From a virus (Duplodnaviria > Caudoviricetes), in the IMG/VR virus record IMGVR_UViG_3300035698_027145, positions 828-64,827 of that record: a DNA stretch of 64,000 bases. One strand, given 5' to 3'. The translations under genes and the position numbers were made by a program. This document shows, one piece after another, positions 36,556 to 42,195 of this stretch (position 1 is its first letter; each line of letters opens with the position of its first letter). The notes beneath the pieces are model-generated. The model ran no database searches and was not told the DNA's origin. It saw only the letters and a program-made list of their open reading frames with translations.

Positions 36556-37224
36556 ATGAATTGGTATAAGAAATCACAACGATATAAAAAGAGAGAATGG
36601 TCTAAGGATGAGATTCAAACTATTAAAGAATTAATAGAAGAAGGGCATTCATTCGAAGAAATAGGAAGTCTTTTTGGTATGAGCAATTATACTATATTGA
36701 GATTAAATAAAGAGCATGGACTAGTAGACCTTGAAGCAAGAAAAATAGAAAAAGACAAACGGATAATTGGTTTTTATTTGTTGCCTCCAGATGGAGAAGG
36801 GTTAAGCACAAAACAAATCACAAAACAATACGGTATACCTATAACAAGTATTAAGAGGGCATTAAAAAGATTTGGCTTATCTGATCAGTATAGAGATAGG
36901 GAGTGGTATGATTCTCCAGAAAATAAAAAGAGATTATCAGAAATTGAAACAGAGAAGGCTTCTGATCCCGCTTATAGAGAAAGGATGTCTGATATGCAGA
37001 AGCAAAGATATATAGATGATCCTGATTTGCATAGACAGAGATCTGAGCAGGGTAAAAAAGTTCATCAAGATAATCCTCAATTAGCTATTGATAGTAAAGA
37101 AAGAATGGAAGAGAGATGGAGTCAATATCCAGGAGGTTTTGAGGAGTGGGTAAGCACATTTCCTCCTGAAAGACAACAACCGATAAGGGATGCTGTGAAT
37201 GCAAAATATAGGACTCGGGCTTAA
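36556..37224 (+). CDS. HTH protein with MNWYK leader
   Basis: REWSKDEI..IKEL..EG.SF.EIG.LFG HTH; YLLPPDGEGLS; NUMOD3-like helices. Confidence 0.75.
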   Translation: MNWYKKSQRYKKREWSKDEIQTIKELIEEGHSFEEIGSLFGMSNYTILRLNKEHGLVDLEARKIEKDKRIIGFYLLPPDGEGLSTKQITKQYGIPITSIKRALKRFGLSDQYRDREWYDSPENKKRLSEIETEKASDPAYRERMSDMQKQRYIDDPDLHRQRSEQGKKVHQDNPQLAIDSKERMEERWSQYPGGFEEWVSTFPPERQQPIRDAVNAKYRTRA

Positions 37225-37226
37225 TT

Positions 37227-37823
37227 ATGAATTGGTATAATAGACAATTAAAGATATCTGGTGGTCCAAGAAGAGAATGGTCTGCTGAAGAGTTGGAAGA
37301 AATAAAAAAATTAATACAAAAAGGAAAATCGTATAGATATGTAGGGGAGATGTTTAAAGTTAGCCCTAGGTCGATAGAAGGGTTAAATAAGAAATATCAA
37401 TGGTTAAATAAAAAGGAAGAATTAATAAAAAAATATAGGCGGATAGCGAGTCTTTACCTATTGCCGCCAGAGGGCAAAGGGATATCAGGATATCAATTGA
37501 GAAAAGAATATGGACTAAGTAATAGCGATATCGTTTCAGCTTTAAAGTTTTTAAATAAATCAGAATTTTATAGACTTCCTAATGACAAGTATGTAATGGA
37601 GCAGCGTTCAATATCTGCAAAAGAATGGTGGGAAGATCATGGTAGACTAGAGGGATATCTCACTTCTATTTCAAAAGAAGAGGCAATATCTTTTTTGAAT
37701 AATCTGGTATCAAATATCAATAAAACCAACAATAGAAAAGCTTTTAACACATATAACAAATACATGCAGATCATCAACAATCACACCTATCCTGATGAAG
37801 TTCAGCAGGGAGTAACTGTTTAA
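37227..37823 (+). CDS. HTH protein with MNWYN leader, paralog
   Basis: Same HTH, YLLPPEGKGIS; C-terminal KYMQIINNHTYPDEVQQ shared with the next gene. Confidence 0.75.
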   Translation: MNWYNRQLKISGGPRREWSAEELEEIKKLIQKGKSYRYVGEMFKVSPRSIEGLNKKYQWLNKKEELIKKYRRIASLYLLPPEGKGISGYQLRKEYGLSNSDIVSALKFLNKSEFYRLPNDKYVMEQRSISAKEWWEDHGRLEGYLTSISKEEAISFLNNLVSNINKTNNRKAFNTYNKYMQIINNHTYPDEVQQGVTV

Positions 37824-37824
37824 T

Positions 37825-39300
37825 ATGAATTGGTATAAGAGACAATTAAAGATAGCAATGCCTAGAAGTTCTGCAAAAAGAGGATGGACAACAGAAGAAT
37901 TAGAGAAAGTGAAGAAATTAGTAGAAGAAGGAATGAGTTTTGAAAGGATAGCAAAGCTGTTTGGAGCATCTGAGAACTCTATACGCCAATTGAATGCAAA
38001 GTATAAATGGGTAGATTTAGAGCTAAGAAGGAAAGAAAAAGAGTTAAAGTGGAAAGAAGAAGATGAGAAGATAGTTAATCTTTATCTATTACCTCCTCGA
38101 GGCGAGGGAGTGTCTGCCAGAGAGATAAGAAGGAGACATGGATTTGGTCTTAAAAGAGTGCAAAAGGCATTAGAAAGATTAGGGCTATCAGAATATTACA
38201 GAAATATATCAGATACTAATAAACGAACATATGACGAAGAAACAATCAAAAAAATAGATTATTTATATAAACAACCTCCAGAGGGATTGGGTTTGCCAAT
38301 GCATGAAGTGGCTAATCGTATTGGGTCGGCTAAAGAATCTTTAAAGAGATTTTTTAATGAAACTGGAAGGAACATAAGGACAGTAGAAGATCAGTTAAAA
38401 TTATTTAATCCTCAAAAATCTAGTAAGTGGGAAGAAGTTGAAGCCAATAAAGAAGAAATTCAAAATATGTTAAATGAAGGATATTCTAAAAAGCAAATAG
38501 CAGAGTTGTTTGAAGTTGGTCCTCAATTAATGATAAAAATGTTGAATAGATTAAATGTTTTTAGAGATTTTAATAAGGTCAAACAAAAAGCTCAAGAGAT
38601 GATGGATCAAGGGATGCTCCTAACTGAGATTTCAAGGAAGTTAAAAATTGATCCTAGAAAAATTAAAAAAATGTTTGATCTCGAGACTAAATCTAGGAAT
38701 TATAGCCCTGGTGTTCCTATATCTCCAGAAGAAGGAGATGAAATAATAAGATTACATATTAAAGAAGAATTAAGACCTACTGAAATATCTAAAAAATTAA
38801 ATAGACCTATAGCTAGTATTGTTGATTTTTTAACACGCAAAGGCGTTTATAAGAGATTAAGGGGAGATTGGGTTAGATTCGATCCTACAGAAGAACAGAT
38901 TAAACAGATAGATGATTGGTATGCTTTGCCTCCGAAGGGAGAAGGTAGATCTCTTATATGGATAGGTTATAAGTTCGGATTATCTGGCAGTCAAATGGGG
39001 TATTGGTTTCATAAAACAGGCAGACCTGTTAGAAGTTTCGAAGAGCAGGTTGCTACCGATGCGACTAAAGAAGATATAAGTTTAGCTAAAATTATAGACT
39101 GGGAAGAAAAAGGGGGATTAAAAGGTTTATTAACAGATTTTTATCCTACAAGACAGCAATCTATAAATTATTTAAACAGTTATGTTCATAGGTTATTACA
39201 GCAGGGAGCTAGTAGAAACAGAGCTTTTGGAACAAGAACTAAGTATATGCAAATCATCAACGATCACACATATCCTGATGAAGTTCAACAACCTGTTTAG
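37825..39300 (+). CDS. Multi-HTH protein with MNWYK leader
   Basis: About seven HTH-like units; Y..PP.G.G repeats x3. Confidence 0.75.
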   Translation: MNWYKRQLKIAMPRSSAKRGWTTEELEKVKKLVEEGMSFERIAKLFGASENSIRQLNAKYKWVDLELRRKEKELKWKEEDEKIVNLYLLPPRGEGVSAREIRRRHGFGLKRVQKALERLGLSEYYRNISDTNKRTYDEETIKKIDYLYKQPPEGLGLPMHEVANRIGSAKESLKRFFNETGRNIRTVEDQLKLFNPQKSSKWEEVEANKEEIQNMLNEGYSKKQIAELFEVGPQLMIKMLNRLNVFRDFNKVKQKAQEMMDQGMLLTEISRKLKIDPRKIKKMFDLETKSRNYSPGVPISPEEGDEIIRLHIKEELRPTEISKKLNRPIASIVDFLTRKGVYKRLRGDWVRFDPTEEQIKQIDDWYALPPKGEGRSLIWIGYKFGLSGSQMGYWFHKTGRPVRSFEEQVATDATKEDISLAKIIDWEEKGGLKGLLTDFYPTRQQSINYLNSYVHRLLQQGASRNRAFGTRTKYMQIINDHTYPDEVQQPV

Positions 39301-39308
39301 TATTTTAC

Positions 39309-39336
39309 AGGGTTGGCTTCGGTCTACCCTTTTTTT
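39309..39336 (+). terminator. Intrinsic terminator (UUCG loop)
   Basis: AGGGTTGGC-TTCG-GTCTACCCT then T run. Confidence 0.85.
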
Positions 39337-39417
39337 ATGTCCAAAAATAATGTTGAAAAGTGATTAGCGTTGATATATAGGTATGATGTGAAGAATTAAG
39401 TCAGGAGAGTTGCACTA

Positions 39418-41084: not shown

Positions 41085-41090
41085 AACATA

Positions 41091-41118
41091 TTGACAAGTG
41101 AAAGTGATATAATATAGT
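41091..41118 (+). promoter_or_regulatory. Sigma70-type promoter
   Basis: TTGACA-N16-TATAGT upstream of the structured non-coding segment. Confidence 0.6.
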
Positions 41119-41124
41119 GTAAGA

Positions 41125-41322
41125 GTGAATGCCGAGTGTATGTTGCGTTTCAGAGTCGTTACCTTAAGTAATGTGGTGGAGTTGCGTTTTTGGTTATTGC
41201 CTTAAGCACACGCCCTAGAGTAGTTGCCTTTAGCAACTTGGTGGATCTGTCGGTTATTGGATGTCTTACTATTCAGTTACTTGGCCCCGAGAAGAGTCGT
41301 CCTACAGGGCGGCTCTTTTTTT
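41125..41322 (+). ncRNA. Putative structured ncRNA with repeated CUU[A/U]A-loop hairpins
   Basis: GC-richer island between a promoter and a terminator (41292-41322); closing helix 41131-41138/41278-41285; three related hairpins with compensatory changes. Confidence 0.65.
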
Positions 41323-41367
41323 ATTTAAAAATAAAGGTTTTTCCCCTTTTTTGTCGAAAATTATTAT

Positions 41368-41889
41368 ATGAATTGGTATAAAAGATCAAAAAAAGAGTGT
41401 AGTGGATGGGTTGCCGTTAAACTCCCTCAGAAGCCTGCTAAGAAGATGCAAGATTGGGGCAAGGATAACATCCCATATAGCCTTTTGCACGTTAAAGAGG
41501 GCAAGGGGAGGGAAACAGACACCCATATAACTGTCATCTATGGAGTTTGTGATAATAGTCTAGAAGCTATTAATCATATAGTTAAAAACTACAAGTCTAT
41601 AAAAGTCAAACTTGGCAAAGTAAGTTATTTTAAGAACGCTCCTGATTTCGATGTAGTAAAAATTGAGATTATTAGTGATGATCTGAAAAAACTTCATGCA
41701 GAGATAAAAAGAACATTAGATGTAGAAGAAACTCACCCTGTCTATAATCCTCATGCTACTATAGCTTATGTTAAAAAGGGAGAAGCTGCTCAATTTGGAG
41801 GAGATACATTTATGGAAGGAACAGAGATAGTTTTTGACAAAGTGACTTTTATAAATGATGATAAAGAAGAGATAGAGATAAAATTATAG
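41368..41889 (+). CDS. 2H phosphoesterase, T4 57B/Acb1-like, with MNWYK leader
   Basis: Two HxT motifs: GRETDTHITVIYG and YNPHATIAYVKKG. Confidence 0.85.
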   Translation: MNWYKRSKKECSGWVAVKLPQKPAKKMQDWGKDNIPYSLLHVKEGKGRETDTHITVIYGVCDNSLEAINHIVKNYKSIKVKLGKVSYFKNAPDFDVVKIEIISDDLKKLHAEIKRTLDVEETHPVYNPHATIAYVKKGEAAQFGGDTFMEGTEIVFDKVTFINDDKEEIEIKL

Positions 41890-41922
41890 AGGATTTTTAT
41901 CTTTTTGGGAGAATATAATTAT

Positions 41923-42195
41923 ATGAATTGGTATAAAAGATCACAATATAATGAAGATGTTCCTGTAGTTAATATTGAGGAACATAATGGCTACTACTAT
42001 GCTTCGGTTGATGGTGATCTAACAAAGATTAAAGGGTATATGGAGTCTTTGTCAAATGGTGCTTGGCAGATCGTAGAAGATCTAAATATATTAGGGAACT
42101 ATCCTAGCAAGGAAGAAGCTTATCAGGCTTATGTGAAATATATTAAGAAAGAGCTTCAATATGTATCAAGAAGAGAAGAGCCTCAATTAGTATAA
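41923..42195 (+). CDS. Small protein with MNWYKRSQ leader
   Basis: ATG 41923 is 8 nt after the promoter -10 element; the track's TTG start lies inside the promoter. Confidence 0.7.
   Translation: MNWYKRSQYNEDVPVVNIEEHNGYYYASVDGDLTKIKGYMESLSNGAWQIVEDLNILGNYPSKEEAYQAYVKYIKKELQYVSRREEPQLV

Follow-up and report, generated by a model that had tools for sequence, protein, structure and literature searches.

We wanted to establish what is served by a short leader peptide, MNWYK, which recurs at the start of proteins encoded in the viral DNA record IMGVR_UViG_3300035698_027145 of IMG/VR. The window, meaning the whole stretch of 64 kb analysed here, comprises bases 828-64827 of this 64.8-kb record, for which CheckV gives a completeness of 14%. 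The leader, which we call the tag, appears from its sequence and distribution to be a modular N-terminal short linear motif, used by a clade of megaphages related to phage G on otherwise unrelated accessory proteins. We estimate at about 50% the probability that it acts as an address-and-cut label that would load accessory enzymes into the prohead, akin to the capsid targeting sequence (CTS) of phage T4.

We searched the six-frame translation of the window for NW[YF][KNR] and obtained exactly six peptides, all of them (6/6) directly behind a start codon. These are the six proteins named in an earlier reading of this DNA (the original prediction), and the open reading frame (ORF) list agreed. 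With the composition of the 66 proteins of the window, 0.008 N-termini with NW[YF] at residue 2 or 3 would be expected by chance, and 6 were observed. The DNA sequence ATGAAYTGGTAYAA was present five times on the forward strand of the window and was missing from the reverse strand, and its reversed control gave 0 matches. The tagged proteins, some of which have helix-turn-helix (HTH) units, are as follows (lengths in amino acids, aa).

36556..37224, + strand: protein A, 222 aa, MNWYKKSQ followed by two HTH-like units; Pfam HTH_23, E 1.9e-5 (24.8 bits, cut-off 24.6)
37227..37823, + strand: protein B, 198 aa, MNWYNRQLKIS followed by an HTH; Pfam HTH_38, E 1.9e-4, under the cut-off
37825..39300, + strand: protein C, 491 aa, MNWYKRQLKIA followed by several HTH units; Pfam HTH_7, E 1.3e-9, and HTH_23, 1.7e-8; phrog_323, 3.7e-15
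41368..41889, + strand: protein D, 173 aa, MNWYKRSKKEC (MNWYKRSK leader) followed by a 2H phosphoesterase; Pfam PF13563, E 9.1e-9
41923..42195, + strand: protein E, 90 aa, MNWYKRSQ, without a family match
10320..10778, + strand: protein F, 152 aa, MPNWFKKTA, a conserved head-module gene beside the terminase region, without a family match

When the first 12 residues were trimmed, A, B and C were still recognised as paralogues (BLASTP E 1e-21 to 1e-25), and D, E and F gave no match among the six (BLASTP E ≥ 0.5). By sequence, the six proteins form four unrelated families, namely the multi-HTH trio, the 2H phosphoesterase, E and F. The claim of at least four unrelated folds holds when it is worded for sequence families; a fold was assigned for the HTH and 2H proteins only, and A-C count once as paralogues. 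The statement that the leaders carry K-x-[A/S] was true of all six.

The reading frame of E extends upstream to a TTG at 41905, and its relatives favour the ATG at 41923. Judged by eye and not by alignment, its N-terminus looks like that of a tagged 124-aa protein of G001, a related IMG/VR record (548 kb, 100% complete). The orthologues of F retain the tag, as MSNWFKNS in G001 and as MSNWYKTS in a second related IMG/VR record of 90 kb, G002. Among the untagged genes which separate the two groups of tagged genes there is a sulfotransferase-like gene (PF00685, E 1e-6) at 40395-41084.

Distribution and cargo of the tag

A 14-nt pattern of the tag was detected in five related records (11, 4, 1, 7 and 4 matches; 27 in all, with 0 for the reversed control), and 26/27 matches headed ORFs. 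A 20-nt variant gave 31 matches in IMG/VR, representing 25 new viral loci; 26 of the matches headed ORFs of at least 40 aa. These loci were mostly on contigs of 43-548 kb, where we identified 37 further tagged ORFs.

For the analyses below we used 43 tagged ORFs, that is the six of the window and those of G001, G002, G005 and the first 39.9 kb of the 107-kb G004. The number was obtained from 46 listed hits by dropping two internal G001 hits (385 and 386 codons past the upstream stop) and one duplicate G004 start. Together with the 37 ORFs from the other contigs, 80 tagged ORFs were gathered, and 76 of them (43 + 33) were scanned against Pfam. The remaining four were three G001/G002 proteins already scanned and one more 2H orthologue. 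N and W were invariant in 43/43 tags, and M-N-W-Y was present in 33/33 aligned tags.

The 76 proteins matched approximately 20 Pfam families, and the tag was seen in approximately 30 viral records. The matches (43 + 33) included HTH types, AAA_33 kinase (3 + 3), HicA (2), 2H/Acb1 (2), GNAT and ART-PolyVal (1 + 1), and further PcfJ, DUF5661, SLT, Zeta toxin, cREC_REC, PolyA_pol and a UvrD helicase with a topoisomerase zinc ribbon. Most tagged proteins were without any Pfam family match, and no core replication or tail family was among the matches. The tag is portable across cargo families, and in the window, G001 and G002 tagged genes lay within or beside the head module.

The tag was also found away from start codons. 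In a 713-aa protein of G001 (59285-61426) it stands at aa 596, before a copy of a neighbouring stand-alone tagged protein, and in G005 (4607-5977) it stands at aa 336, ahead of a GNAT domain. Two homologous proteins of approximately 600 aa (G005 120-1943 and G004 4925-6685) carry it at both ends, with the C-terminal copies 11 and 20 residues from the end.

We applied the 20-nt pattern to cellular genomes (one per species, 596 Gb) and obtained 83 matches, of which 53 were internal and 20 were on very short frames. The N-terminal rule was passed by 10, and only three of these look genuine, all on short AT-rich contigs of metagenome-assembled genomes; one such contig has five tag starts in 8 kb. 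At the sensitivity of this search the tag is essentially confined to viruses. Many of the internal cellular matches read ...WYKKAAEQG...AQ.NLG..., which we take to be Sel1-like repeats of bacteria, and the tag may resemble the start of the helix of such repeats.

The MNW[YF] tag was missing from the more distant capsid relatives phage G, LR745208.1, Tunturi_5 and Rctr197k; the single match to the tag pattern in phage G lies inside the ribonucleotide reductase beta gene and is not N-terminal. A string search of the literature, which does not reach supplements, found no description of MNWYK-type leaders or of the MKRLIKK-type leaders presented below.

The tagged 2H phosphoesterase

Protein D can be assigned to the 2H phosphoesterase superfamily on the basis of its two H-x-[T/S] motifs and a predicted 2H fold. 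It scored 36.0 bits with PF13563 (cut-off 27), both H-x-T motifs were intact, and H53, T55 and H129 were invariant in 51 sequences. The match to the Acb1 family (PF23474, E 2.2e-6) was barely above the cut-off (27.9 bits, cut-off 27). In a Foldseek search with the AlphaFold model of D, the top match was Acb1 (7t26; E 6e-6, TM-score 0.51/0.63), and LigT, Usb1 and CPDase scored alike (E 6e-6 to 1e-4 for the 2H enzymes).

The model had a confidence (pLDDT) of 91; its residues 1-8 were below 50 and the fold began at residue 13. We compared this with conservation in 85 homologues of D. The tag stood at residue 1 in 68/85 and behind a longer called start in 4 more. The others were one truncated sequence with a partial tag, 5 apparently truncated ones, and 7 distant ones (35-39% identity) with different starts. 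In the alignment of the family, tag columns 1-5 had a top-residue frequency of 0.97, as compared with 0.65 elsewhere, which makes them its most conserved segment, and the tag was retained in homologues with identity to D as low as approximately 43%. Since the N-terminus is the most conserved part of the alignment and yet disordered in the model, it bears the signature of a short linear motif that a partner would bind.

The second half of the tag and the head proteins

The tag is bipartite, with MNW[YF] at the extreme N-terminus and hydrophobic-K-x-[A/S]-[S/Q/N] 4 to 16 residues in. K-x-[A/S] was present within residues 3-18 in 63/76 tags, as compared with 80/635 control ORFs. The K was at position 5 in 47 of these and displaced to positions 6-14 in 16, including window proteins B and C (Q-L-K-I-[S/A]). 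Residues 6-8 vary in DNA while the K-x-[A/S] chemistry is kept.

The same motif is present in head-assembly proteins of the window. The window is AT-rich, with all its major genes on the + strand, and we assign it to a phage-G-related megaphage genome, of which it is a piece, because its capsid protein is related to that of phage G and its head module is collinear with those of G001 and G002. The capsid protein had 55% identity to gp27 of Bacillus phage G and 94% and 97% identity to its counterparts in G001 and G002; the region 3' of the capsid gene differs among close relatives. The features concerned are listed below.

7509-9437, + strand: large terminase
19448-20629, + strand: 393-aa head-module protein with four FN[LW]-K-x-A-[SQ] sites
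21109-24474, + strand: portal protein with insertions; tblastn to phage G gp14; phrog_16240, E 1.2e-40
27256-34065, + strand: head maturation protease (phage G gp19-like), 2269 aa; tblastn to phage G gp19; Pfam intein
34756-35628, + strand: major capsid protein; phrog_2522, E 5.2e-66; fixes the phage lineage

The 2269-aa protein begins MAMYKRAT; its gp19-like N-terminus is split by an intein and followed by an extension of approximately 1600 aa. Pfam matched only intein families in it. Its intein-free orthologue in G002 matched phrog_18299, 'head maturation protease' (E 8.4e-12), and the N-terminus of a 1263-position PHROG (E 3e-29). The best match in a PDB sequence search with the protease domain was not meaningful (Nanos, E 0.02). 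In the available part of one report, gp19 of phage G is named as the head maturation protease (10.1101/2024.12.16.628780). Orthologues of this protease-scaffold fusion were present in 4/5 other large records with a tag match, and the sole match of the fifth was a chance 11-codon frame. A complex prediction for the protease domain of the G002 orthologue and the tagged 2H enzyme scored 0.00 against a mark of 0.32, which weighs neither for nor against contact between them.

KTA[SQN] occurred 11 times in the 66 window proteins, as compared with 0.69 ± 0.79 in 300 shuffles (maximum 4), and 11/11 sites were in the head module (12716-34065). Five were in the protease-scaffold protein, two in the 393-aa protein, one in a 270-aa protein, one in the portal tail and two in MKILKTANY leaders. 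We repeated the comparison in G001 with sites beyond residue 12. K.A[SQ] reached 2.51 per 1000 aa in the head module and 0.39 elsewhere (6.5-fold, p = 6e-10), and KTA[SQN] reached 0.60 and 0.05, respectively (11-fold, p = 3e-4).

The original prediction had drawn a parallel between the leaders and the sequences FNLKKAQ and FNWKEAS of head proteins, and the 393-aa protein bears it out, with KPFNLKK at its N-terminus, KPFNLKKAQ at aa 105, AFNLTKTAQ at aa 243 and KPFNWKEAS at its C-terminus. In three orthologues KPFNLKKAQ forms an identical island in a divergent N-terminal region, and KPFNWKEA[SQ] is conserved although the G001 protein runs 45 residues further. The portal protein has ELIKTAS 46 residues before its end, and the protein at 9505-10320 begins MKKTFNLKKMAAS. 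The second half of the tag is the motif found at conserved islands and domain boundaries of head-assembly proteins, namely the protease-scaffold fusion, the 393-aa and 270-aa proteins and the portal tail.

Three further observations concern these head genes. The portal gene is interrupted by a LAGLIDADG-type insertion and has a DUF559 endonuclease-like domain near the end of its frame. The protease intein is present in the window gene and missing from G001 and G002. In another relative, G003, the capsid gene match is in three pieces with stops between them (80836-84249 of that record), which suggests intron or homing-element insertions.

Related leaders in the window and in phage G

A second leader was found in the head module, and a third in phage G (NC_023719.1), on at least seven unrelated proteins.

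24965..26958, + strand: array of five small genes with the leader MKI[IL][KR]T[AK][NR]Y, between portal and protease
Phage G, leader MKRLIKK[A/S/G]: gp13, gp17, gp38, gp126, gp213, gp345 (SLOG family) and gp610

A sixth copy of the MKI-type leader is located at 12716-13003, and a short extra frame starts near 26971. This leader matches the MNWYK leader (as in MNWYKRAQ) at M1 and K5, and also at A7 in three of the five array genes; in most copies N comes next to A7. The phage G portal tail and protease hold K-I-A-S and K-V-A-S sites. Both leaders resemble the MNWYK leader in that they are N-terminal, have M1, K5 and, where it is present, A7 followed by S, N or Q, and stand on unrelated cargo in the same or a related lineage. 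They differ from it in having basic or aliphatic residues in place of N-W-[Y/F].

Head loading as the favoured explanation

If the tag is the proposed head-loading label, MNW[YF] would dock the cargo to the assembling prohead core, and the gp19-like head maturation protease would then cut at the K-x-A site. The freed enzymes would stay inside the head and later be delivered to the host cell together with the DNA. The cargo of the window would then be three multi-HTH DNA binders, the 2H phosphoesterase and two proteins without a family. The types of cargo also fit by analogy, as ART-PolyVal, 2H, GNAT, HicA, Zeta-like and AAA_33 kinases, SLT, PcfJ and UvrD have counterparts among proteins for which passage with the phage DNA is known or has been predicted.

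The claim that this is a second capsid-targeting and cleavage tag is partly supported, since the tag was found to be modular, selected as a peptide, confined to phages and placed on unrelated effector-type enzymes, with a second half concentrated in head proteins, and such a tag would be expected to have these properties. The packaging of the multi-HTH proteins and the cutting are predictions.

Prohead binding, cleavage, packaging and injection are steps that we infer. Several observations count against head loading. K-x-[A/S] was missing from residues 3-18 of 13/76 tags, and K-x-A could equally be read as a binding motif rather than as a cleavage site. The protease-scaffold orthologues (63-71% identical) are too similar to reveal islands of the motif. 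Among the tagged cargo are very large proteins (1190 and 1235 aa) and proteins with predicted membrane helices, which one would less readily expect in a head. Genes A-C and D-E are behind terminators and sigma-70-like promoter matches, apart from the capsid gene. Finally, the Shine-Dalgarno core was rarer in tagged genes (18/43, as compared with 38/60 untagged genes; p = 0.045); this weak difference would allow the 5' coding sequence some part in initiation.

Comparison with known systems

The closest known system is the CTS of T4. In the part of the review available to us, it is described as the sole feature common to diverse internal proteins that counter host defences, which it directs into the scaffolding core of the prohead, and foreign proteins can be loaded by means of it (PMC3012670). 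In a similarly partial view of another source, T4 Alt is packaged and injected (PMC5512222). Like the CTS of IPI-III and Alt, the MNWYK tag is a short N-terminal peptide on otherwise unrelated proteins of one phage. Its second half coincides with a motif in which head proteins are enriched, and is a candidate cut site of the prohead protease. The tag differs in being from a phage-G-like lineage, in which a gp19-like protease is fused to a giant scaffold-like extension, in covering approximately 20 Pfam families, in being known from sequence alone, and in occurring also internally and at C-termini. The two are not known to be alike in sequence.

In the giant phages SPN3US and phiKZ the cut motif ends in an acidic residue and not in K-x-A-[S/Q]. 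According to the portions available to us, many proteins of these phages are packed with the DNA and trimmed by the prohead protease at a short motif (PMC7411985, PMC10052503, PMC5694885). Unlike the tag, one conserved leader common to their propeptides is not reported in those portions.

Polyvalent proteins have the same enzyme repertoire as the tagged set, and ART-PolyVal matches two tagged proteins. In the part of their description at hand, they include ART, 2H, GNAT, kinases and lytic transglycosylase, and the prediction is that they are injected together with the DNA at an early stage of infection (Iyer, Burroughs, Anand, de Souza and Aravind 2017, PMC5512222). As described there, they hold 2-15 domains per chain, whereas the tagged genes are mostly separate, with few two-domain fusions that have the tag at the joint. 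We did not class the window proteins as polyvalent, as D has one catalytic domain and A-C have HTH units only.

Encapsulin cargo peptides and the capsid-targeting tail of the HK97 protease are likewise short terminal peptides, at either end, that dock cargo inside an HK97-fold shell. Encapsulin cargo peptides are uncut and differ in sequence from the tag.

Alternative explanations

Another machine, such as a chaperone of phage or host, an unfoldase or protease by which effectors are removed at a set time (with the tag as a degron) or a localisation factor, might recognise the tag as a docking peptide without any loading of the head. We consider this unlikely, and place it first among the alternatives. 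Disorder together with high conservation at a terminus is what any short linear motif might show, and the MKII... and MKRLI... leaders are basic and hydrophobic at the N-terminus, as are N-terminal recognition signals of unfoldases. Many cargo proteins (HicA, Zeta-like, ART) are toxic enzymes that a phage might need to switch off. Further, phage G encodes ClpP and also ClpX, and both are reported in its particles in the available part of the source (10.1101/2024.12.16.628780). However, ClpP is not encoded in the complete G001 or in the fragments G002-G004, and we rejected a degron for a phage-encoded ClpP in this clade. A different machine also leaves unexplained the 6- to 11-fold enrichment of the second half of the tag in the head module, the tags at domain junctions and C-termini, and the tag on the conserved head-module gene at 10320.

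It is more doubtful still that the tag is a mere cleavage site, at which a phage protease would activate or release proteins in the cytoplasm (a propeptide or a polyprotein joint) without packaging. The motif common to the presumed substrates of the head protease and the internal copies at domain joints would both fit. A cut site alone, however, needs no invariant N-W-[Y/F] at the extreme N-terminus, and the loss of 8-11 disordered residues outside the fold is an improbable activation switch. Known prohead proteases moreover act inside proheads, which counts against a cytoplasmic role.

A role at the level of nucleic acid has very little probability. The sequence could be an extended -10 promoter (TGGTATAAT), which is what is read at 37227, or a 5' coding sequence that aids initiation without a Shine-Dalgarno sequence or without a leader; the smaller share of Shine-Dalgarno cores is consistent with this. 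The five copies of the window are identical over 14 nt (ATGAATTGGTATAA), but this is expected because codon bias alone predicts it with (0.87 x 0.89)^5 = 0.28. The original prediction had itself named conservation of DNA rather than peptide as a refuting outcome, and the test came out for the peptide. We compared synonymous codons of the 43 tags with genome usage and observed no significant deviation (AAT 33/43, genome 0.87; TAT 35/37, 0.89; AAA 30/37, 0.70). As the wobble positions follow the codon usage of the genome, selection acts on the peptide and not on the DNA. Y/F exchanges occur in the tag, and the same peptide is found internally and at C-termini. The final T that completes TGnTATAAT was present in only 3/43 tags, and the codon variants TAC (2), TTT (5) and TTC (1) break the hexamer, so we did not class the tag as an extended -10 element.

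The claim that three tagged genes are leaderless from a late-type promoter could not be confirmed. A consensus scan of 34000-43000 gave no promoter-like site beside the five starts, and no late promoter could be defined from the intergenic regions of the window. A TATAAT hexamer in a position that would suit a near-leaderless start was seen at 36556 only, with its end 9 nt ahead of the ATG; at 41923 the distance from the end of the hexamer to the ATG is 4 nt, and the start at 41368 is approximately 45 nt past a strong terminator.

The least probable explanation is that the tag is a functionless 5' cassette end which recombination or gene duplication has spread within a hypervariable region, for although A-C are paralogous, close relatives diverge 3' of the capsid gene, D and E have 26 nt in common (ATTAT followed by ATGAATTGGTATAAAAGATCA) and B and C approximately 30 nt, a neutral relic would decay, and the tag keeps its top-residue frequency of 0.97 in the 2H homologues and recurs across all those Pfam families and viral records.

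Intergenic elements near the tagged genes

The best sigma-70-like match of the region is TTGACA-16-TATAGT at 41091-41118. It is followed by approximately 200 nt without a convincing frame and by a strong terminator at 41289-41320, just 5' of gene D, and 41091-41330 may encode a small RNA or act as a regulatory leader. Scans of the tagged region against Rfam and for tRNAs gave nothing above threshold (best Rfam E 0.014, at 41091-41330). A hairpin with a T-run followed by TTATGTCCAAAAATAA...TTGAAAAGTGA recurs in two intergenic regions, 35649-35725 and 39301-39417, and the scan called a terminator in only one of the two, at 35649-35674. These cassettes flank the tagged HTH operon and the untagged genes at 39418-41084, and a related promoter-like sequence, TTGACAAGTGAAAGTGA, is present at 41091.

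Implications

A broader form of the proposal is that the tag is a universal code of a megaphage clade for loading and cutting, in which any frame with MNW[YF] and K-x-A would be a capsid-packed protein delivered with the DNA, also where the tag is internal or C-terminal, so that multi-domain cargo would be cut in the head. We regard this as possible, at somewhat less than even odds. If it were true, sequence alone would list every protein that uncultivated huge phages make in advance and inject, including an Acb1-like enzyme ahead of the cyclic-nucleotide alarm of the host, RNA-repair kinases, ADP-ribosyltransferases and DNA-coating HTH proteins.

Even with no part in labelling proteins for the head, the tag is a strongly conserved, previously undescribed short linear motif confined to viruses. 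As a head label, it would be only the second well-defined capsid address system coded in sequence after that of T4, from which it would differ in its protease and in a much wider range of cargo, and foreign proteins could be loaded into large capsids by attaching it to them. The MKRLIKK leader of phage G makes the idea testable at the bench in a cultured phage. In the window, the 2H phosphoesterase and the three multi-HTH DNA binders would become candidate virion proteins, and genome sequences would yield a catalogue of the proteins injected by uncultivated megaphages; host defences encounter these proteins first, and identifying them by other means is very hard.

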